Source of the DNA: a virus
Lineage: Duplodnaviria > Heunggongvirae > Uroviricota > Caudoviricetes
Length of the DNA: 47,772 nt
Reading direction: 5' to 3' (one strand)
IMG/VR virus record: IMGVR_UViG_2698536610_000001
The notes under the pieces were generated by a model, which worked only from the letters and a program-made list of their open reading frames with translations, did no database searches and was not told the DNA's origin. A program made the position numbers and the translations under genes. Each line of letters starts with the position of its first letter. The stretch's first letter is position 1. Below, piece after piece: positions 4,752 to 44,755 of the stretch.

Positions 4752-4809
4752 AAAAAGGGCGGCAGAGCAGTCACGGAGTAAAACTGATACCGCCAAACGT
4801 CACCAGAAA
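4752..4809 (-). ncRNA. dicF: DicF small RNA (ftsZ-targeting antisense sRNA) with 3' hairpin and U-tract
   Basis: Minus-strand sequence TTTCTGGTGACGTTTGGCGGTATCAGTTTTACTCCGTGACTGCTCTGCCGCCCTTTTT is readable directly; GGCGG…CTGCCGCC stem followed by a T-run; lies between ydfC and dicB as in Qin. Confidence 0.75.
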
Positions 4810-5366: not shown

Positions 5367-5495
5367 TCAGCCGTTAGATTTTGCCGAACTGGAAAGCGCC
5401 TGTTTAAATTCGTTGAAGCTGAGAGCTTCTTCGCCTTCGGCAAGACCTTCGAAGTATTCTTCGTAAGCCTTTTCCATGATTGTGTCGAAATCCAT
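5367..5495 (-). CDS. ydfB: YdfB-like 42-aa protein
   Basis: Hand-translated minus-strand ORF MDFDTIMEKAYEEYFEGLAEGEEALSFNEFKQALSSSAKSNG (below the track threshold); start is one base from the ydfA stop. Confidence 0.5.
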   Translation of the reverse strand: MDFDTIMEKAYEEYFEGLAEGEEALSFNEFKQALSSSAKSNG

Positions 5496-5496
5496 A

Positions 5497-5652
5497 TCAC
5501 TCACCTGAGTTTCTTTCCAGCCAGCGACGGGCACCATTTTCGGTTTTAAACGTTTTGCTTTTGGTATACGTCATCGCGGTGAACGTACCGTCCTGGTTGG
5601 GGAACACGCCACATACCAGAGATTCGCTGTTGCCAAGATCGATAGTATCCAT
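5497..5652 (-). CDS. ydfA: YdfA-like 51-aa protein
   Basis: Internal start MDTIDLGNSESLVCGVFPNQDGTFTAMTYTKSKTF… of the 69-aa track ORF; first gene downstream of the leftward promoter/operator region. Confidence 0.55.
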   Translation of the reverse strand: MDTIDLGNSESLVCGVFPNQDGTFTAMTYTKSKTFKTENGARRWLERNSGE

Positions 5653-5729
5653 GCTGACCTCATTTCCCCTTAACGCTGGGGTAGCGGAACTGTTTGCTGA
5701 GAACACCGTGCGGTGTGTTGATGCAAATA

Positions 5730-5758
5730 AGATTAGCTATGACTAACATATAGGTCAA
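5730..5758 (-). promoter_or_regulatory. Putative leftward early promoter (dicB-operon promoter analogue): -35 TTGACC, 17-bp spacer, -10 TAATCT
   Basis: Read on the minus strand; the spacer and -10 overlap the TTAGCTATGACTAA operator-like palindrome at 5733-5746. Confidence 0.45.
5733..5746. promoter_or_regulatory. Operator-like site TTAGCTATGACTAA (TTAG-N6-CTAA)
   Basis: Near-palindrome of the same TTAG…CTAA family that recurs four times around dicA. Confidence 0.5.
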
Positions 5759-5769
5759 GTGATTTTGTA

Positions 5770-5783
5770 TGTTATGGCTAACA
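5770..5783. promoter_or_regulatory. Operator-like half-palindrome TGTTATGGCTAACA
   Basis: Related to the other TTAG-N6-CTAA sites; between dicA stop and ydfA. Confidence 0.35.
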
Positions 5784-5818
5784 TAATTGATGTGGTAAAA
5801 GATAACTCATTGATGATG

Positions 5819-6226
5819 TTATCTTTTATTTGTCCGCTGACGGGCTTTTAGTAATTCTTCAAAGAGTTTATTGAAGTTTTTTACTCGAGCTCGCATTTCG
5901 GCGAGCTGGGTATCCTGTTCTGATTCTGGCAGTGCATTAAACAGCTCAAGGAGCTCTAGTTCTTTGGGGGATAAGGCAACTGGCTTCTCAACAGGTGGTG
6001 TTGGTTGCTTGTCTTCATCGCCAAATAGAATCCATGTTGGTGAGCATTGCAATACTTTGCTGAGGGCAAAAAGGTTCTTCCCTGTAGGTTCACTATCATC
6101 CCGTTCCCATTGTGATACAGACACATGGGAGATTTTCAGGGCTTTAGCAAGAGACCTTTGGGTGTGTTTGAGGTTTTTCCGACGATACCTAATGCGTTCG
6201 CCGATAGTTAAATTTTTTGTTTCCAT
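5819..6226 (-). CDS. dicA: DicA-type HTH (XRE family) repressor, CI-like immunity repressor
   Basis: 135-aa ORF METKNLTIGERIRYRRKNLKHTQRSLAKALKISHVSVSQWERDDSEPTGKNLF… matches remembered DicA; divergent from dicC; palindromic operators on both sides. Confidence 0.85.
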   Translation of the reverse strand: METKNLTIGERIRYRRKNLKHTQRSLAKALKISHVSVSQWERDDSEPTGKNLFALSKVLQCSPTWILFGDEDKQPTPPVEKPVALSPKELELLELFNALPESEQDTQLAEMRARVKNFNKLFEELLKARQRTNKR

Positions 6227-6228
6227 AG

Positions 6229-6242
6229 TTAGCTAATGCTAA
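6229..6242. promoter_or_regulatory. Operator-like palindrome TTAGCTAATGCTAA
   Basis: TTAG-N6-CTAA inverted repeat 3 bp beyond the dicA start codon, in the dicA-dicC intergenic region. Confidence 0.5.
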
Positions 6243-6248
6243 ATCGTA

Positions 6249-6277
6249 TTGACTATGTTTTTGTTAACATCTATTTT
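6249..6277 (+). promoter_or_regulatory. Putative rightward early promoter for dicC: -35 TTGACT, 17-bp spacer, -10 TATTTT
   Basis: Consensus -35 hexamer; the -10 region is overlapped by the 40-bp perfect palindrome. Confidence 0.45.
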
Positions 6278-6305
6278 GTTAGTCATGACTAACAAAATAG
6301 ATGTT
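6266..6305. promoter_or_regulatory. 40-bp perfect palindrome AACATCTATTTTGTTAGTCA|TGACTAACAAAATAGATGTT with core TTAGTCATGACTAA; putative main operator
   Basis: Read directly; the first 20 nt are the exact reverse complement of the second 20 nt; ends 4 bp before the dicC ATG. Confidence 0.6.
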
Positions 6306-6309
6306 TTAA

Positions 6310-6540
6310 ATGCTTAAAACTGACGCTCTTTTGTATTTCGGTTCAAAAACAAAACTTGCACAAGCAGCAGGTATTCGTTTGGCTTCGCTTTATAGCTGGA
6401 AAGGGGATTTAGTTCCCGAAGGTCGCGCGGTGCGTCTACAGGAGGCATCTGGCGGGGAGCTTCAGTATGATCCCAAAGTTTATGATGAATATCGTAAGAC
6501 GAAGCGGGCGGGGCGGTTGAACAATGAAAATCACTCCTGA
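6310..6540 (+). CDS. dicC: DicC-type Cro-like regulator
   Basis: 76-aa ORF MLKTDALLYFGSKTKLAQAAGIRLASLYSWKGDLVPEGRAVRLQEASGGELQYDPKVYDEYRK… matches remembered DicC; first gene of the rightward operon. Confidence 0.8.
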   Translation: MLKTDALLYFGSKTKLAQAAGIRLASLYSWKGDLVPEGRAVRLQEASGGELQYDPKVYDEYRKTKRAGRLNNENHS

Positions 6541-7045
6541 ACAGGCTCGTGAGGCTCTGGATGCCTGGATATGTCGACCAGGAATGACACAGGAGCAGGC
6601 GACGATATTAATCACTGAAGCATTTTGGTCTTTGAAAGAGCGCCCGAACATCGATGTTCAGCGTGTCACAGATGAAGGTGGCGCGGTTGATCAGCGAGCG
6701 CTTGGCGTTAATCGAGTGAAGATATTCGAACGCTGGAAGGCTATTGACACCAGGGATAAGCGTGAAAAGTTCACGGCGCTAGTGCCTGCAATTATGGAGG
6801 CTATCCGGATTAGTGATTTCAGGTTGTATCGTGAAATTAGTGACGGGAAAAGCATTACGTACATGATCGCCGGGTTAAACAAAGAATATGGCGATGTGGT
6901 GGAGTCCGGACTGCTTTTTGCTGATCCTGCCGTAGTGGATCGTGAAACTGACGAACTTATAGAAAAAGCAATTGCTTTCAAACTTGCGTATCGACAGCAA
7001 TACCAACAAAAAGCTGGATGGAATTATGAGCCTTCTTTTTGCTGA
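6524..7045 (+). CDS. Conserved phage early protein in the cII position (possibly YdaT-family)
   Basis: 173-aa ORF overlapping the dicC 3' end by 17 nt; family assignment is tentative and from memory. Confidence 0.45.
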   Translation: MKITPEQAREALDAWICRPGMTQEQATILITEAFWSLKERPNIDVQRVTDEGGAVDQRALGVNRVKIFERWKAIDTRDKREKFTALVPAIMEAIRISDFRLYREISDGKSITYMIAGLNKEYGDVVESGLLFADPAVVDRETDELIEKAIAFKLAYRQQYQQKAGWNYEPSFC

Positions 7046-8463: not shown

Positions 8464-8786
8464 AGAGCATTAGTTCAGATGTGAATTGACATTTTCGTGG
8501 CACAAGATTAGCGCTAGCGTGGTCGTTTGGTTTGTGCCAAGAGCGGATAATGCTGACATTCCTATGCACTAATTAACGCAGAGCAAGCCAGTTAGTTGGT
8601 TATGGAAGTAAGTTGTAGCCAGCAACTATCACCATCGGAGATATTTAGGGGGATGCACTCTAAGTTGTAGTTACTTTATAATGTCACTTTCAAAGCGGAA
8701 GCTTGTACAAAAGATGGATAAGCTTTTGTATAGTATGGGATTCAAGAATCACTAAAAGATGACAACAGTACTTACAGGATGTGGCT

Positions 8787-9026
8787 ATGATCCGAATTAT
8801 GATTAGAATATTTTCTTTGACATTCGTTGCTTGCGCTGGCTTTGCTGCATATCACTTCAATAGTGTGCCATTGATGTTCACTTCTGGTAGCTTTCTTGTA
8901 ACATTTTTAGGTACATTTATTGTTAATAAAAAAAGTTCAGGGCATACAATAATTCAAAAAAGCGGTAGCCATTCAAAAAATAATCAGACGGTCGTTTTTG
9001 GAAATAATGAAAACAAGCGAGGCTGA
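8787..9026 (+). CDS. Small membrane protein with two predicted TM helices (cassette gene A)
   Basis: ATG 8787 with AGGA upstream; hydrophobic stretches IFSLTFVACAGFAAY and FTSGSFLVTFLGTFIV; stop 2 nt before gene B; AT-rich. Confidence 0.5.
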   Translation: MIRIMIRIFSLTFVACAGFAAYHFNSVPLMFTSGSFLVTFLGTFIVNKKSSGHTIIQKSGSHSKNNQTVVFGNNENKRG

Positions 9027-9028
9027 TC

Positions 9029-9625
9029 ATGGTTGGTGTTACTCAAAGGTCAGGGAATTACTCACGTAATGTGCAGGTGGTTGTCGATTCTAACTCTGTT
9101 GATATTATAAAGTCTCCATCGATTTTTATGGATCTTGTTGGTATTTTAGTTGATTCGAATGTTATTGATCCTCGTACAAACAATGACTACGAGCCATATG
9201 ATATTGAGAATAAAATAGACTTCAATGATGTTATAAAACATAGAGAACGTATTGAAGGGTTCTATCTATATTCTTCGATGATAGATAAAGCGTATGAAAC
9301 ATTAAATGAAAGTATGCCTACTGCTAAGGAAACGGCACTGAAAAGCATCAATTCACGATATCTTGATTGTCAAGGAGATTTATTGCTTAAACATAGAGAA
9401 GCGTATAAGAGCTGCAAGGATGCTCAGGAACGGAATAATTTAAAGATTCAATTGGTAAGAGAGTTTGCAGATTGGATAATAGACAGTGTAATAGAGCACA
9501 TCATTAAGAAATGCTTAAATTCTCTTATGGCAATGAATTACACAAGCGAAGAAATCGAATGCCATGCTTCTTTTATCGTTTATCATGCATTCGTAGAGTG
9601 TAAGATTCTGGAAAAACCAATATGA
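9029..9625 (+). CDS. Hypothetical 198-aa protein (cassette gene B)
   Basis: Tightly coupled to A upstream and C downstream (ATGA overlap); no motif recognised. Confidence 0.55.
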   Translation: MVGVTQRSGNYSRNVQVVVDSNSVDIIKSPSIFMDLVGILVDSNVIDPRTNNDYEPYDIENKIDFNDVIKHRERIEGFYLYSSMIDKAYETLNESMPTAKETALKSINSRYLDCQGDLLLKHREAYKSCKDAQERNNLKIQLVREFADWIIDSVIEHIIKKCLNSLMAMNYTSEEIECHASFIVYHAFVECKILEKPI

Positions 9626-9858
9626 TTATCTCTGATGTAACAAAACCAAGCCAAACCTTGTATTACCTGGGGGCTCGGTTATTAGAATGCATGAGTTCAA
9701 ATGCTTATTCGTATGTTGATATTATAGACTTGTATAATGAATTCAAATCTAAAAATAACAACTCTTCATTCACGCAATATATTTACACTTTAAATTGGCT
9801 ATATTTATTAGGCCTGGTTGATGCTAACGAAAATGGAGATTTGATATTATGTTTTTGA
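9622..9858 (+). CDS. Hypothetical 78-aa protein (cassette gene C)
   Basis: Overlaps B by 4 nt and D by 10 nt; small, probably helical. Confidence 0.5.
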   Translation: MIISDVTKPSQTLYYLGARLLECMSSNAYSYVDIIDLYNEFKSKNNNSSFTQYIYTLNWLYLLGLVDANENGDLILCF

Positions 9859-11573
9859 AACGGCTAATAGTCAGTTCTTTCAGGCTTGGAGTGATTCGTG
9901 ATATCGAATTTCACATTGGCGTTAATTTGATTATTGACCGAAACACCTCCAGCAAAGAGCAAACTGGAAATGGTGTGGGAAAAACTACTGTATTAAGAGC
10001 TTTAGATTTTTGTTTTGGAGCAGAACAACTGAATTTTTATACCGATCCTGAATTCAAGAAAGAAAATTCGGTTATAAAAAATTATTTGATAGAGAACGAG
10101 ATTGAGTTTTGTTTAATTCTCACAAAAGATTTGAATAATAAAACTGCACCAGTAATAAAAATTAAGCGTAAAATTACATCTGAGACTAATAAAACGAAGG
10201 TTATAGCCTCAATAAATGAAGAGTCCTATACGAAGGCTAAAGATTTCAACGAGGCTTTAAAAAGAACATTATATCTTGATTCCGCGATAAAACCGACCAT
10301 ACGAGAGATTATGGGACGTGTTATTCGAAATACGCATGACAAGATGTCGAACGCATTAAAAACGATAAAAATGGGTTCTAATACACAATATGAAACGTTA
10401 AATCTGTTTATGTTTGGGTTCGGTAACTCACAGATTCTGGATGAAAAACAGTCAGTGACTAAAGCCTATAAACTGGCGAAATCCGATTATGAAGTAATTA
10501 CTCGCCATCGCTCAAAGAATGCTTTGGAACAAGCTATTGCAATTATAAATAGAGATATTATAGCACAAGAAGAGTTAATTTCTAATTTTCAAGTGGCAGA
10601 CTCTTATAATGATATGCTTGCTGAGTTAAATGAGTTAAAAATTAAAATTAGTGAAGTTTCTATCATACTATCATCTTTGGAGTTTAAGCAAAAATTAAAC
10701 GATAAGGCTATACTAGATCTGGAAAAAAGTCATGAAAATATAAATACACTAGATCTACAGAAGTTGTACTTAGAAGCAACTGATCGGTTAGGTAACTTAA
10801 ACAAAGAGTTTACTGAGCTACTTTCGTTTCATAATAAAATGCTTGTAAAAAAAGCTGAGTTTATTAGAAAACAAATGCAGCCAGTGCTGCAAGAAATTTC
10901 CAAATATAAAGATGAACTAAATAACTTATTGACTCAAGAATCAGAGCTTTTAAAGAGTTTGTCTTCGCATGGGACATTGGCAGACCTGCAAATAATGCAA
11001 AAAAAATTAAATTCATTATTTGAAGAAAAAGGTGGGCTTGAAGCTGGACTACTTCAAATCCAAGAGATGGAGAACAACTTTAATATACTGAAAGCAAAGT
11101 TTAATGATGTGTCAGATAGATTAAAATCTAAACTTGACGATTTTAACAAACGTCTTGCGCTATTCAATTCCTATTTTTCTTTATATACTAAAAAATTATA
11201 TCAGGATGAATATATTCTTTCCTATAAAGATTCCTCCGGTTCTTTCGTTTTTACCATTGAACCTTTAGGAACTTTGCTCACATCAGGTAATCAGGGAGAA
11301 GGAAAAAAGAAAGCCCAGGTTGCCTCTTTAGATTTTGCCTATTTATCTGTCCAGGAGTCTTTAGAAGCCAGAACACCACGTTTTATAGCTCATGATGGAA
11401 TTGAGGCAATTCATGTAAATCAAATAAATAAGTTATTCGAGATAGCTTCGGGGATTAATGGTCAATATATATTGGCTATTCTTAAAGACAAGTTGGAGAA
11501 TATTGATCAAGACTTCATCAATAATAGTGTTGTGCTTGAGCTTGGGGAGGACGATAAGTTTTTTAGGCTTTAA
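9849..11573 (+). CDS. ABC-type P-loop ATPase with long central coiled coil (SMC/Rad50-like architecture) (cassette gene D)
   Basis: Walker A GNGVGKTT at aa 40-47 (nt 9966-9989); heptad-rich helical region roughly aa 220-440; C-terminal signature-like TSGNQGEG, Walker-B-like RFIAHD and a following His. Confidence 0.7.
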   Translation: MFLKRLIVSSFRLGVIRDIEFHIGVNLIIDRNTSSKEQTGNGVGKTTVLRALDFCFGAEQLNFYTDPEFKKENSVIKNYLIENEIEFCLILTKDLNNKTAPVIKIKRKITSETNKTKVIASINEESYTKAKDFNEALKRTLYLDSAIKPTIREIMGRVIRNTHDKMSNALKTIKMGSNTQYETLNLFMFGFGNSQILDEKQSVTKAYKLAKSDYEVITRHRSKNALEQAIAIINRDIIAQEELISNFQVADSYNDMLAELNELKIKISEVSIILSSLEFKQKLNDKAILDLEKSHENINTLDLQKLYLEATDRLGNLNKEFTELLSFHNKMLVKKAEFIRKQMQPVLQEISKYKDELNNLLTQESELLKSLSSHGTLADLQIMQKKLNSLFEEKGGLEAGLLQIQEMENNFNILKAKFNDVSDRLKSKLDDFNKRLALFNSYFSLYTKKLYQDEYILSYKDSSGSFVFTIEPLGTLLTSGNQGEGKKKAQVASLDFAYLSVQESLEARTPRFIAHDGIEAIHVNQINKLFEIASGINGQYILAILKDKLENIDQDFINNSVVLELGEDDKFFRL

Positions 11574-11859
11574 GATTTGTAATTTGATAGATATGTAGAT
11601 ATCATTTTTCTCGCTCAAAACTGACAGTCAGATTTGAGCGAATTGCTTATGTAAGTATTTCGCAGAATCATGCCATTTATATTTATTAGAACATACGTAC
11701 TTTAAATGTGGGAGGCTGTCATGTTGGTTCTTAAATGTTCGCTGACTATTGCGGTGGTGCGGGCAATTTATTGTTCTGTTATTCTTATGGATCGCCTTTC
11801 TGACTGATTTCATATTGGCGAGATAACGGGAGTTAAGTAGAATGCCTGCGGGTGCTTGA

Positions 11860-12018
11860 GGCTATCTGCCTCGGGCATGAATACCAACGGCAGATAGAGA
11901 AAAGCCCCAGTTAACATTACGCGTCCTGCAAGACGCTTAACATTAATCTGAGGCCAATTTCATGCTAGACACATGTAGGTTAGCCTCTTACGTGCCGAAA
12001 GGCAAGGAGAAGCAGGCT
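11860..12018. promoter_or_regulatory. hok/mok mRNA leader; expected location of antisense Sok RNA (not mapped)
   Basis: Inferred from hok/sok locus organisation; mok ORF begins at 11962. Confidence 0.35.
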
Positions 12019-12174
12019 ATGAAGCAGCAAAAGGCGATGTTAATCGCCCTGATCGTCATCTGTTTAACCGTCATAGTGACGGCACTGGTAACGAGGAAAG
12101 ACCTTTGCGAGGTACGAATCCGAACCGGCCAGACGGAGGTCGCTGTCTTCACAGCTTACGAACCTGAGGAGTAA
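12019..12174 (+). CDS. hok: Hok/Gef family type I toxin (mok in-frame extension from 11962)
   Basis: MKQQKAMLIALIVICLTVIVTALVTRKDLCEVRIRTGQTEVAVFTAYEPEE; the 70-aa upstream extension MLDTCRLASYVPKGKEKQA… resembles Mok; GGCGAGGGA-GAAA-TCCCTCGCC stem-loop at 12182-12203. Confidence 0.8.
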   Translation: MKQQKAMLIALIVICLTVIVTALVTRKDLCEVRIRTGQTEVAVFTAYEPEE

Positions 12175-12390: not shown

Positions 12391-12654
12391 ATGATGAACA
12401 TGATGATGAACATCGAAGAACTGCGTAAAAATTTTTGTGAAGATGGCCTCTATGCTGTGTGCGTTGAAAATGGAAATCTTGTTAGTCATTACCGCATTAT
12501 GTGTTTGCGAAAGAATGGGGCTGCGTTAATTAATTTTGTGGATGGTCGAGTGACAGACGGATTTATCTTGCGCGAAGGTGAGTTTGTCACTTCATTACAG
12601 GCACTGAAAGAGATCGGAATAAAAGCTGGCTTTTCTGCTTTTTCAGGAGAATAA
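12391..12654 (+). CDS. Hypothetical phage protein (87 aa)
   Basis: GGAAGGA Shine-Dalgarno; unusual MMNMMMN start; no motif recognised. Confidence 0.45.
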   Translation: MMNMMMNIEELRKNFCEDGLYAVCVENGNLVSHYRIMCLRKNGAALINFVDGRVTDGFILREGEFVTSLQALKEIGIKAGFSAFSGE

Positions 12655-39400: not shown

Positions 39401-39912
39401 TCAGTGGCAGTGTGAATGCGAACGCCGGGACGCTCAACAACGTTACGATAAATGAGAACTGTCAGATTAAAGGGAAACTGTCAGCCAACCAGATTGAAGG
39501 CGATATTGTCAAAACAGTGGGTAAGGCTTTCCCGCGGGACTCCCGGGCACCGGAGCGGTGGCCATCAGGGACCATTACCGTCAGGATTTATGACGATCAG
39601 CCGTTTGACCGGCAGATTGTTATTCCGGCGGTGGCATTCAGCGGTGCTAAACATGAGAGAGAGCATACTGATATTTACTCCTCATGCCGCCTGATAGTGA
39701 AGAAAAATGGTGCTGAAATTTATAACCGTACCGCGCTGGATAATACGCTGATTTACAGTGGTGTTATTGATATGCCAGCTGGTCACGGCCACATGACGCT
39801 GGAGTTTTCGGTGTCAGCATGGCTGGTAAATGACTGGTATCCCACAGCAAGTATCAGCGATTTGCTGGTTGTGGTGATGAAGAAAGCCACCGCAGGCATC
39901 AGTATCAGCTGA
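36433..39912 (+). CDS. J: Host specificity / central tail fibre protein gpJ
   Basis: 1159 aa, lambda J-like size, position and N-terminal region. Confidence 0.9.
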
Positions 39913-39931
39913 ATTTTATAACCCATATACG

Positions 39932-39956
39932 GGCGCCAGAAATGGCGCCTTTTTTA
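39932..39956 (+). terminator. Intrinsic terminator after J
   Basis: GGCGCCA-GAAA-TGGCGCC followed by TTTTTT. Confidence 0.6.
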
Positions 39957-39979
39957 TTGCAGAAAAGCGAGAGGTAATT

Positions 39980-40579
39980 ATGCGTAAAGTTTGTGCAGCC
40001 ATTTTGTCCGCAGCCATCTGTCTGGCCGTATCCGGTGCGCCTGCATGGGCGTCTGAGCAGCAGGCCACACTGAGCGCAGGGTATCTTCATGCCCGTACGA
40101 ACGCTCCCGGCAGCGATAATCTGAACGGGATTAACGTGAAATACCGTTATGAGTTTACGGACGCGCTGGGGCTGATTACGTCCTTCAGTTATGCCAATGC
40201 TGAGGATGAGCAAAAAACGCACTACAGCGATACCCGCAGGCATGAGGATTCCGTGCGTAACCGCTGGTTCAGCGTGATGGCGGGGCCCTCTGTGCGCGTG
40301 AATGAATGGTTCAGTGCGTATGCGATGGCGGGCGTGGCTTACAGCCGTGTGTCGACTTTTTCCGGGGATTATCTCCGCGTAACTGACAACAAGGGGAAAA
40401 CGCATGATGTGCTGACCGGAAGTGATGACGGTCGCCACAGCAACACGTCTCTGGCGTGGGGGGCTGGCGTGCAGTTTAACCCGACCGAATCCGTGGCCAT
40501 TGATATTGCTTATGAAGGTTCCGGCAGTGGTGACTGGCGCACTGACGGTTTCATCGTGGGTGTCGGTTATAAGTTCTGA
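39980..40579 (+). CDS. lom: Lom/Ail family outer-membrane beta-barrel protein
   Basis: Signal peptide (…AVSGAPAWA); alternating beta-strand pattern; C-terminal …GVGYKF; lambda lom position. Confidence 0.85.
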   Translation: MRKVCAAILSAAICLAVSGAPAWASEQQATLSAGYLHARTNAPGSDNLNGINVKYRYEFTDALGLITSFSYANAEDEQKTHYSDTRRHEDSVRNRWFSVMAGPSVRVNEWFSAYAMAGVAYSRVSTFSGDYLRVTDNKGKTHDVLTGSDDGRHSNTSLAWGAGVQFNPTESVAIDIAYEGSGSGDWRTDGFIVGVGYKF

Positions 40580-40605
40580 TTAGCCAGGTAACACAGTGTT
40601 ATGAC

Positions 40606-40633
40606 AGCCCGCCGTTTCAGGCGGGCTTTTTTG
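40606..40633 (+). terminator. Intrinsic terminator after lom
   Basis: AGCCCGCC-GTTTCAG-GCGGGCT followed by TTTTTT. Confidence 0.6.
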
Positions 40634-40643
40634 TGGGGTGAAT

Positions 40644-43600
40644 ATGGCAGTAAAAATTTCAGGTGTACTGAAAGACGGCACAGGAAAACCGGTACAGAAC
40701 TGCACAATCCAGCTGAAAGCAAAACGTAACAGTACCACGGTGGTGGTGAACACAGTGGCCTCAGAAAACCCGGATGAAGCCGGGCGTTACACAATGGACG
40801 TCGAGTATGGTCAGTACAGCGTCAGTCTGTTGGTGGAGGGATTCCCGCCGTCACACGCCGGGATTATCACCGTATATGAGGACTCAAAGCCGGGCACACT
40901 GAATGATTTCCTCGGTGCAATGACGGAGGATGATGTCCGGCCAGAGGCACTGCGCCGTTTTGAACTGATGGTGGAAGAGGTGGCGCGTAACGCGTCCGCA
41001 GTGGCACAGAACACGGCAGCCGCGAAGAAGTCAGCCGGCGATGCCGGCACATCTGCCCGTGAGGCGGCAACCCATGCGACTGATGCTGCAGGCTCAGCAC
41101 GCTCAGCCAGCACGTCAGCCGGACAGGCCGCTTCGTCGGCTCAGTCAGCGTCTTCCAGCGCAGGAACGGCATCAACAAAGGCCACTGAAGCATCGAAAAG
41201 TGCTGCTGCTGCAGAGTCCTCAAAAAGCGCGGCAGCTACCAGTGCCGGTGCCGCGAAAACGTCAGAAACGAATGCTGCAGCGTCACAACAATCAGCAGCC
41301 ACTTCTGCATCCACCGCGACCACGAAAGCGTCAGAAGCTGCCACCTCAGCCCGGGATGCGGCGGCTTCAAAAGAGGCGGCAAAATCATCAGAAACGAACG
41401 CATCCTCGAGCGCCAGTAGCGCAGCTTCCTCGGCAACGGCGACAGCAAATTCTGCGAAGGCGGCCAAAACGTCCGAGACGAACGCCAGGTCTTCTGAAAC
41501 GGCAGCGGGACAGAGTGCCTCAGCTGCGGCAGGCTCAAAAACAGCGGCTGCGTCGTCTGCCAGCGCCGCGTCAACAAGTGCCGGGCAGGCCTCAGCCAGT
41601 GCCACCGCCGCCGGAAAATCGGCAGAAAGCGCCGCATCATCCGCTTCAACAGCCACAACGAAGGCTGGCGAAGCCACTGAGCAGGCCAGCGCAGCAGCGA
41701 GGTCAGCTTCCGCAGCGAAGACATCCGAAACGAACGCGAAAGCGTCGGAAACCCGTGCAGAATCCTCAAAAACGGCTGCTGCATCGTCCGCCAGTTCGGC
41801 GGCGTCATCGGCATCATCTGCGTCTGCTTCAAAAGATGAGGCGAGCAGACAGGCATCAGCAGCGAAAGGCAGCGCCACGACGGCATCCACGAAGGCGACA
41901 GAGGCAGCTGGCAGTGCGACGGCGGCAGCTCAGAGCAAAAGTACGGCGGAATCCGCGGCAACGCGCGCTGAGACAGCGGCAAAACGGGCAGAGGATATTG
42001 CATCCGCCGTGGCGCTTGAGGATGCGAGCACGACGAAAAAGGGGATAGTACAGCTCAGCAGTGCGACCAACAGCACTTCCGAGTCACTGGCGGCAACGCC
42101 AAAAGCCGTTAAGGCCGCGTATGACCTGGCTAACGGGAAATACACCGCACAGGATGCAACGACAGCACAGAAAGGGATAATCCAGCTAAGCAGCGCGACC
42201 AACAGCACGTCTGAAACGCTGGCGGCAACGCCAAAGGCAGTAAAATCAGCCTATGACAATGCAGAGAAACGTCTGCAGAAAGACCAGAACGGCGCTGATA
42301 TACCCGATAAGGGACGCTTCCTGAACAACATTAACGCGATCAGTAAAACAGACTTTGCTGATAAGCGTGGTATGCGTTATGTGCGGATTAACGCTCCTGC
42401 AGGTGCAACATCTGGAAAATATTACCCTATTGTTGTTATGCGTTCTGCTGGCTCAGTAAGCGAACTGGCATCAAGGGTCATTATCACCACGGCAACGCGA
42501 ACCGCAGGCGATCCGATGAATAACTGCGAGTTTAACGGATTTGTTATGCCTGGTGGCTGGACTGACAGGGGGTGTTATGCTTATGGAATGTTCTGGCAAT
42601 ATCAAAACAATGAACGAGCCATCCACTCAATAATGATGAGTAATAAGGGCGATGATTTGCGCTCTGTGTTCTATGTTGATGGCGCTGCTTTCCCTGTTTT
42701 TGCGTTTATCGAAGATGGCCTGTCAATATCCGCACCTGGTGCTGATCTCGTTGTTAATGATACGACCTATAAGTTTGGGGCAACAAATCCAGCGACTGAA
42801 TGTATCGCGGCGGACGTTATCCTTGATTTTAAGAGTGGGCGTGGTTTTTATGAGTCTCATTCGTTAATCGTTAACGATAACTTGTCGTGCAAAAAACTTT
42901 TTGCCACAGACGAAATTGTAGCGCGTGGTGGTAATCAGATTCGAATGATAGGTGGGGAGTATGGGGCATTATGGCGTAATGATGGCGCTAAAACTTACCT
43001 GCTGCTTACCAATCAAGGTGATGTTTATGGTGGATGGAATACATTAAGACCGTTTGCTATTGATAACGCAACCGGCGAACTGGTTATTGGAACCAAGCTG
43101 TCTGCAAGTCTGAACGGTAACGCATTGACAGCAACAAAGCTGCAAACGCCAAGACGGGTTTCTGGTGTTGAGTTTGATGGTTCCAAAGATATTACTTTAA
43201 CCGCCGCGCATGTGGCTGCTTTTGCCAGAAGGGCAACGGATACATATGCCGATGCGGATGGTGGCGTTCCCTGGAATGCCGAATCAGGCGCTTATAATGT
43301 CACCCGCTCTGGCGACAGCTATATTCTGGTTAACTTCTATACCGGAGTCGGAAGTTGCCGGACCCTGCAGATGAAGGCGCATTACAGAAATGGTGGTCTG
43401 TTCTACCGTTCTTCAAGAGACGGTTATGGTTTTGAGGAAGACTGGGCAGAAGTTTATACCTCGAAAAATCTTCCACCAGAAAGCTACCCAGTCGGCGCAC
43501 CAATCCCGTGGCCATCAGATACCGTTCCGTCTGGTTATGCCCTGATGCAGGGGCAGACTTTTGACAAATCTGCTTACCCGAAACTTGCGGCCGCTTATCC

Positions 43601-44174: not shown

Positions 44175-44755
44175 TGGCATTCAGAATGAGTGAACAACCA
44201 CGGACCATAAAAATTTATAATCTGCTGGTCGGAACTAATGAATTTATTGGTGAAGGTGACGCATATATTCCGCCTCATACAGGTCTGCCAGCAAACAGTA
44301 CCGATATTGCACCACCAGATATTCCTGCTGGCTTTGTGGCTGTTTTCAACAGTGATGAGGCATCGTGGCATCTCGTTGAAGACCATCGGGGTAAAACGGT
44401 TTATGACGTGGCTTCCGGCGACGCGTTATTTATTTCTGAACTCGGCTCATTACCGGAAAATGTCACCTGGTTATCCCCGGAAGGGGAGTTTCAGAAGTGG
44501 AACGGCACAGCCTGGGTGAAAGATGCAGAAGCAGAAAAACTATTCCGGATCCGGGAGGCGGAAGAAACAAAAAACAGCCTGATGCAGGCAGCGAATGAGC
44601 ATATTGCGCCACTTCAGGATGCTGTAGATCTGGAAATCGCAACGGAGGAAGAAAACTCGTTGCTGGAAGCCTGGAAAAAGTATCGGGTGTTGCTGAACCG
44701 TGTTAATACAACAACTGCACCGGATATTGAATGGCCAGTAGCACCTATAGGGTAA
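44174..44755 (+). CDS. tfa: Tail fibre assembly protein (Tfa)
   Basis: 193 aa; ATG overlaps the stf stop; conserved C-terminus …[27 protein letters not shown]. Confidence 0.85.

Follow-up and report, generated by a model that had tools for sequence, protein, structure and literature searches.

A 40-bp perfect palindrome at the dicC promoter of a Qin-type prophage is probably a recent quasi-palindrome mutation

Background

Does a long perfect palindrome at a promoter mark a regulatory element, or the manner in which the sequence has mutated? The question is raised by IMG/VR record IMGVR_UViG_2698536610_000001, a stretch of 47,772 nucleotides (hereafter, the window), in which a 40-bp perfect palindrome lies between the divergent regulatory genes dicA and dicC, ending 4 bp before the dicC start codon. 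An initial annotation had proposed that a palindrome of this length was either a high-affinity operator or a DNA or RNA hairpin controlling dicC. These genes belong to an already known system, the DicA/DicC immunity switch, here in an E. coli lambdoid prophage that is full length and of Qin type.

Three sequence-defined operators, Oc, Om and Oa, have been described between dicA and dicC (Yun et al., PMC3441716). Oc is a 20-nt inverted repeat (TTGTTAGTCATAACTAACAA on the opposite strand) that is bound by DicA in vivo in K-12; a single A-to-C change in its CTAA abolishes binding, while DicA at Oc represses dicC and activates dicA (PMC3441716). The 5' end of dicC was mapped in K-12 by 5' rapid amplification of cDNA ends (5'RACE; PMC3441716). 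A further promoter, dicBp, situated upstream of ydfA, is PL-like and repressed by DicA; in K-12 it is derepressed by the antirepressor Rem, and DicC is needed for spontaneous bistable switching (Ragunathan et al., PMC10448788). A preprint using chromatin immunoprecipitation sequencing found the strongest DicC binding at this locus, at one site on each side of dicA, and derived the palindromic motif TT(A/C/T)G...C(G/A/T)AA (PMC11430063).

Results

A palindrome confined to one sequence

The perfect palindrome was confirmed in the window, where it is related to the following features:

5819-6226, minus strand: dicA, open reading frame for a CI-like helix-turn-helix repressor of 135 aa
6310-6540, plus strand: dicC, open reading frame for a Cro-like regulator of 76 aa, with its ATG at 6310
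6249-6277, plus strand: dicC promoter (dicCp), -35 TTGACT (6249-6254), 17-nt spacer, -10 TATTTT (6272-6277)
6276-6295: operator Oc, 20 bp, TTGTTAGTCATGACTAACAA, core TTAG-N6-CTAA at 6279-6292, corresponding to K-12 Oc
6266-6305: perfect palindrome, AACATCTATTTTGTTAGTCA followed by TGACTAACAAAATAGATGTT, with 20-nt arms and no spacer, consisting of Oc and outer arms

No perfect palindrome in the window is longer, the second longest being 16 bp, and approximately 4e-8 of such length would be expected by chance. Its core is a TTAG-N6-CTAA site, as initially annotated. The window Oc differs from K-12 Oc solely at the central base, 6284, where C makes a perfect 20-mer. Oc extends over the dicCp start site and reaches into the end of the -10 hexamer; its left flank bears the -10 hexamer, and its right flank the dicC Shine-Dalgarno.

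Approximately 210 related loci were gathered from IMG/VR, metagenome contigs, one GTDB genome and individual E. coli genomes, and approximately 40 alleles were tabulated. Conclusions were drawn from the dicA-to-dicC part only, which is free of indels; the ydfA side has indels. The palindrome was private to this sequence and is not a conserved element: the perfect form was present in none of the other alleles. The region was carried by 843 of 5,426 complete E. coli genomes, none of which (0/843) matched an 81-nt stretch of the window exactly, the best having 3 mismatches. Exact-pattern scans of IMG/VR, GTDB species representatives and metagenome contigs also returned no match to the window form.

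K-12 and the phage genome PhiR42_1 had a quasi-palindrome only, and all five differences in the 111-nt intergenic alignment fell inside the 40 bp. The number of symmetric pairs per allele ranged from 13 to 17 of 20, with 17/20 in the parental allele. Pairs 11, 13 and 16 were mismatched in nearly all other alleles, the exceptions being two mirror-converted alleles and one partial case (6270 only), described below. Conservation across alleles extended to the TTAG and CTAA half-sites, the left arm (which includes the -10 hexamer) and the Shine-Dalgarno AGGTG, and positions 6298 and 6301 were invariant in 44 other haplotypes. The Oc centre (6283-6288) and the four bases to the right of Oc (6295-6298) were hypervariable, amid near-identical intergenic regions. 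All four combinations of bases occurred at 6284/6287, such that the reverse-complementary central hexamers TTATGA and TCATAA coexisted with the 'corrected' forms TCATGA and TTATAA; this variation suggests that the palindrome centre has repeatedly undergone inversion or templated change.

The 21-nt anchor TTGACTATGTTTTTGTTAACA also matched Lachnospira multipara LB2003 (L185) and a Collinsella metagenome-assembled genome (L186). The first match was likely due to chance in A/T-rich DNA, the flanking sequence being unrelated, while the second, on a short contig, may be binned E. coli DNA. Differences at 6625 and 6629 were considered as private changes and rejected, being present in four other loci and so ordinary polymorphisms.

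Pattern of substitution within the palindrome

Inside the palindrome, the window differed from GPEC657, strain 165 and the nearest IMG/VR haplotypes at three positions only: 6296 (T>A), 6298 (A>T) and 6301 (G>A). The closest haplotype over the 580 nt from 5999 to 6578 showed these three differences and one at 6430, and no others. In the right arm, the three changed bases belong to the three mismatched pairs and to no others, and each of them now complements the left arm. The parental form reads AATAAAGG at 6295-6302 and has CAATAAAGGTG within 6290-6305; the new right arm carries CAAAATAGATGTT, and the window allele over 6290-6305 includes CAAAATAGATG. The affected region may be delimited as follows:

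6296-6301: minimal converted tract, in which the right arm has been made the exact complement of the left arm

Random triple substitutions in the 83-bp intergenic region reproduced this pattern in 9 of 2,000,000 simulations (analytic value 3.2e-6; about 3-5e-6).

Changes of the opposite polarity were observed elsewhere. In E. coli AR_0077, comparison with the nearest haplotype over 580 nt gave differences at 6270, 6273 and 6275 alone, and the left arm, AACACCTTTATTG (also written CCTTTATTG), is the exact complement of the right arm. The same three changes were found on a different, K-12-like background in IMG/VR contig 2526164632_000027, while strain WS0115A had only the 6270 change among the three.

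Template switching at quasi-palindromes has been studied in E. coli with the lacZ QP5/QP6 reporters (PMC7202029), arm homogenisation and spacer inversion have been described at imperfect inverted repeats in yeast (PMC8604942), and inverted-repeat expansion has been reported at promoters (PMC13100816). Since homogenisation of the arms in either direction, combined with inversion of the centre, is the published signature of the process (PMC7202029, PMC8604942), the palindrome was interpreted as the probable outcome of a recent, single quasi-palindrome template-switch mutation, which would have removed the dicC ribosome-binding site. The probability of this interpretation is put at roughly three in four. 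The ancestral sequence would have been a quasi-palindrome around Oc with three persistent mismatches; during replication, the nascent strand would have folded back and copied its own left arm, and the tract at 6296-6301 would have been rewritten as the complement of that arm in one event.

Predicted effects on dicC

We infer that dicC +1 lies at ~6284, 2 nt before the palindrome centre, because 5'RACE in K-12 sets the -11 A (6273) 11 nt upstream of +1 (PMC3441716). The -10 hexamer is TATTTT in the window and TATCTT in K-12, and the -11 A is retained. The conversion changed the dicC Shine-Dalgarno from AAGGTG to TAGATG (parental leader AATAAAGGTG; window leader AAAATAGATG), and the best duplex with the 3' end of 16S rRNA went from -3.9 to +0.1 kcal/mol; the ribosome-binding site is predicted to have been lost. 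Oc and both dicCp hexamers were untouched, and DicA repression should therefore be unchanged. The mirror events altered the -10 hexamer from TATCTT/TATTTT to TTTATT, with loss of the -11 A. Conversions of either arm should lower DicC output, and so bias the switch to the DicA (repressed) state.

The substitution at 6430 (A>G) produces DicC M41V and was private also, the codon being ATG in all of the approximately 200 related loci; dicC thus bears two lineage-specific changes, M41V and the lost Shine-Dalgarno. An AUG placed 1 nt after the proposed +1 opens a 10-codon, out-of-frame reading frame (6285-6317) that overlaps the dicC start codon and, in the window only, 6301 G>A creates AUG-UUU-UAA directly abutting the dicC AUG. 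The dicC start codon itself lies in the 4-nt loop (ATGC) of an invariant inverted repeat of 7 bp, GTTTTAA / TTAAAAC, at 6303-6320. The left end of this repeat overlaps the end of the 40-bp palindrome, and the repeat could fold into a small, A/U-rich hairpin in the mRNA of dicC.

Alternative explanations

Several points weigh against a single template switch that silenced dicC, or against the wider account of the locus in which it is placed. Stepwise change is possible because WS0115A has one of the three left-arm changes, and, less probably, three independent point mutations may have arisen under selection for symmetry, an unsampled allele may have been imported, or the form may have arisen in vitro or during assembly. 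The loss of dicC translation is predicted from base-pairing energy only, and the A/U-rich, unstructured leader may permit some initiation. With respect to the operators, isolated Om and Oa gave no DicA binding in the assays of Yun et al. (PMC3441716), and two convincing sites were found at dicBp against the three stated in the literature.

The alternative that survives best, while still unlikely, is that the palindrome is an extended, selected, high-affinity operator of adaptive symmetry, with its outer arms occupied by two DicA dimers, or by DicA and DicC. Partial symmetry of the outer arms is shared by every allele, the parental 40-mer is already more stable when folded than shuffled versions of it (z = -3.8), the flanks of the left operator OL2 (described below) resemble those of Oc, and perfecting events have occurred more than once. 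Against these observations, the perfect form was a singleton in every collection searched; the near-universal mismatches at pairs 11, 13 and 16, and the hypervariability of the four nucleotides beside Oc, tell against an extended site; and the changes strike two otherwise invariant Shine-Dalgarno positions. The operators of the heteroimmune relatives mEp460 and PPompW are only 16 bp, with no extension, and the 20-mer Oc suffices for DicA binding in vivo (PMC3441716). The inference of high affinity from length was not borne out, and a conserved extended operator was rejected by the allele survey together with the comparison with mEp460, PPompW and HannyBb.

A sequencing, amplification or assembly artefact is likewise unlikely. 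Template switching can also happen in vitro, for instance by a polymerase at a hairpin-prone site, and the allele is unique to this sequence; however, mirror-image alleles were found in independent assemblies (AR_0077 and the IMG/VR contig), and the type of event therefore occurs in nature. The ordinary private substitution nearby, at 6430, is consistent with a real diverged lineage.

It is very unlikely that dicC is controlled by an RNA hairpin in its leader, or by a DNA cruciform at its promoter, which was the other suggestion of the initial annotation. As single-stranded DNA, the window 40-mer folds at -15.7 kcal/mol (z = -9.5), compared with -7.1 kcal/mol for the parental form. The palindrome is 75% A+T, and high A+T favours cruciform extrusion under negative supercoiling; it also spans the -10 hexamer, start site and ribosome-binding region. 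However, a cruciform cannot be a conserved mechanism, and the arms are mismatched in nearly all other alleles, without covariation or compensatory pairs. A leader RNA hairpin is ruled out by the position of +1 (~6284; 5'RACE in K-12, PMC3441716), which places the left arm upstream and leaves only the right arm in the mRNA; a consensus scan gave no other plus-strand promoter match upstream, and folding from a 5' end at ~6284 showed no palindrome-derived stem.

Finally, import of the substitutions by recombination, from a divergent immunity allele or from the OL2 flank 511 bp away, is highly improbable, for while lambdoid prophages recombine often, mosaic blocks were seen, and the OL2 flank CTAACATAATTGATGT matches the new right arm at 8/10 positions compared with 5/10 for the parental arm, no donor allele was found in any collection searched, the left arm accounts for every position of the six-nucleotide tract, the nearest haplotype is identical over the surrounding 580 nt apart from the tract and 6430, and the OL2 flank is a less parsimonious ectopic donor because a continuous tract from it would put T at 6299, where the window keeps A.

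Operators and promoters around dicA

Besides Oc and dicCp, the following sites were recognised on the two sides of dicA:

6252-6269: Om-like weak site, ACTATGTTTTTGTTAACA, of which only the right half-site is good; 82% to the OL2 site
6227-6244: Oa-like site, core TTAGCTAATGCTAA at 6229-6242, directly upstream of the dicA start codon
5731-5748: OL1-type operator, GATTAGCTATGACTAACA, core at 5733-5746, within the spacer and -10 of the dicB promoter
5766-5783: OL2-type operator, TGTATGTTATGGCTAACA, core at 5768-5781 (TATG-N6-CTAA), upstream of the dicBp -35
5730-5758, minus strand: dicB (PL-type) promoter, -35 TTGACC (5758-5753), 17-nt spacer, -10 TAATCT (5735-5730)

Exact matches to TTAG-N6-CTAA occurred at 5733-5746, 6229-6242 and 6279-6292, that is, three against a whole-window expectation of 0.5, and none lay outside a 560-bp stretch around dicA. 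The longer form TGTTAG-N6-CTAACA, with up to two mismatches, matched only at 5731, 5766 and 6277 in 47.8 kb. An operator family on both sides of dicA, as the initial annotation had described, was recovered by these searches, the switch itself having already been published. The annotation had listed four related sites; the three exact ones are real and so is the fourth, TGTTATGGCTAACA (5770-5783), but this last was reframed to 5768-5781, because of its register with the other sites and with K-12. The left half of OL2 is degenerate, while the K-12 version, GCTATAGC, is symmetric about 5774.5.

There are two convincing operators to the left of dicA and three to the right, one of them weak. The right-side sites are evenly spaced with their centres 25 bp apart (6235.5, 6260.5 and 6285.5), and the Oa-like site was invariant but for one position across related loci. 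The names and putative roles of Oa and Om were assigned by position and by analogy with lambda. A third dicBp operator was sought and rejected, the half-sites near 5708-5721 and 5793-5806 being a misfit to the TGTTAG-N6-CTAACA architecture. There was direct similarity between the OL2 region (5762-5799) and the Oc region (6273-6310), extending over 38 nt at 79% and so well past the 14-bp cores; this relatedness of the flanks presumably reflects an old OL/OR duplication.

Both promoters were located where the initial annotation had placed them, overlapping operators. The minus-strand promoter is the dicB (PL-type) promoter and not that of dicA, a point on which the annotation was silent; its hexamers are identical in K-12, and it drives ydfA-ydfB-ydfC-dicF-dicB. 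It went unlisted by the consensus scan because its -10 hexamer matches at only 3/6 positions. A perfect 11-bp inverted repeat of the GVTATCTTTTA type (TAAAAGATAAC and GTTATCTTTTA; 5796-5828, with an 11-nt loop) runs across the dicA stop and may separate dicA from the dicB promoter as an insulator or a weak terminator. It is not followed by a clear U-tract.

Taken with the K-12 data, this arrangement suggests how the switch would operate. On either side of its own gene, DicA would bind operators of the TGTTAG-N6-CTAACA type: at Oc it would block the dicC promoter and stimulate dicA, and at 5731-5748 and 5766-5783 it would block the PL-like dicB promoter. DicC would recognise the same family of sites and repress dicA. 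Less DicC, following loss of its ribosome-binding site, would favour the repressed state.

Identity of the locus and prophage context

The divergent CI-like and Cro-like genes of the initial annotation were corroborated by the open reading frames, Pfam domains and NCBIfam models alike. DicA passed the curated NCBIfam model NF007257 (DicA) with 235.6 bits against a cut-off of 101, and DicC passed NF007282 (DicC) with 156.2 bits against a cut-off of 130. The Pfam domains were HTH_3 alone for DicA and P22_Cro for DicC; DicA has no S24 peptidase/autocleavage domain, its 135 aa containing only helix-turn-helix-type Pfam domains. The interval 5400-6700 was 97.7% identical to E. coli K-12 (DH1, C600) over 1301 nt, with the gene order of K-12 (ydfC-ydfB-ydfA-dicA / dicC) and protein identities of 99.3% (DicA) and 98.7% (DicC). 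PhiR42_1, a deposited phage genome with ECOR13 as its recorded host, was 97.6% identical to the region, and the closest genome was GPEC657 (99.3% over 1301 nt).

As a whole, the window was collinear with the complete lambdoid prophage that strain MB06171 carries between rspB and ydfJ, the content running from integrase and terminase through capsid to tail fibres. The genes dicB and ydfD were located downstream of the PL-like promoter, and two further elements are of regulatory interest:

4757-4808, minus strand: DicF RNA
12403-12654: rem, antirepressor gene, 97.6% identical to K-12 Rem

SOS control through a LexA box was considered and rejected, there being no canonical CTGT-N8-ACAG in the whole window, in a search that did not cover degenerate LexA boxes; this agrees with the statement in the literature that the inducer of rem is unknown (PMC10448788). 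Relative to MB06171, which was the closest complete genome, the blocks 8493-11711 and 39474-43161 were unaligned or only 93% identical, the remainder being ~98.5% identical; these blocks are mosaic cargo and tail-fibre segments. A sok/hok module was noted at 11850-12024, and an IS009 RNA match at 44517-44715.

Comparison with known systems

The dicA-dicC-dicB immunity region of the K-12 Qin prophage was reportedly described by Bejar et al. in 1988. The cryptic Qin prophage of K-12 has the same locus and genes, the same -35 hexamers, near-identical -10 hexamers, Oc, Om and Oa, and two OL-type sites. By contrast, the prophage in the window is full length, from integrase to tail fibres; its Oc is a perfect 20-mer, its -10 is TATTTT, the right flank of Oc is converted and the dicC Shine-Dalgarno destroyed, and DicC carries M41V.

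The locus resembles the OR-OL switches of lambda and P22 (CI/Cro and C2/Cro) in its divergent repressor and cro-like genes, in having operators that flank the repressor gene and overlap promoters of the PR and PL kind, in its three right sites spaced at 25 bp, and in the reported activation by the PR-proximal repressor of its own gene (PMC3441716). It is unlike them in that DicA has no RecA-cleavable C-terminal domain, the operators are TTAG-N6-CTAA palindromes of 14-20 bp, and only Oc bound DicA alone in the published in vivo assay. Antirepressor-controlled repressors of the Gifsy/Fels type (cited in PMC10448788) share the short repressor without a peptidase domain, and here rem is present in the same prophage; in contrast to the Gifsy type, no canonical LexA box was found in the window. 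As at the quasi-palindrome hotspots of the Ripley model, an imperfect repeat was made perfect by a clustered multi-nucleotide change, each changed base complements the other arm, and events occurred in both directions. Unlike the QP reporters, the present case is an allele found in nature, situated in a phage operator and ribosome-binding region, and its mechanism is proposed from the sequence pattern only.

Discussion

In itself the switch is not novel: it is the textbook Qin DicA/DicC locus, carried by what appears to be a complete prophage. What is of use is a negative result: a palindrome at a promoter, however striking, appears to be a recent, lineage-confined mutation, with a pattern that points to its origin, rather than a regulatory element. 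It would offer an instance from nature of multi-nucleotide mutation templated by a palindrome in E. coli, replicated in mirror image, and it falls on the signals for expression of a cro-like gene.

A conflict between homogenisation of the palindrome and the needs of the -10 hexamer and ribosome-binding site seems to underlie the three persistent mismatches. This raises the tentative idea, which we consider doubtful at present, that the Oc quasi-palindrome is a natural, recurrent template-switch hotspot, where each perfecting event silences dicC and locks the prophage in the repressed state. If it were so, the left arm must keep the -11 A (6273), and the right arm A6298 and G6301; right-arm conversion would remove the ribosome-binding site, as in the window, and left-arm conversion the -10, as in AR_0077 and the IMG/VR contig. 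The locus would then contain a built-in mutational route to prophage domestication.

For motif scans there is a caution, in that the length and perfection of a palindrome can stem from a mutational mechanism and not from selection. If the loss of DicC is real, such events could alter how readily Qin-type prophages, and their toxic dicB and dicF, switch on.

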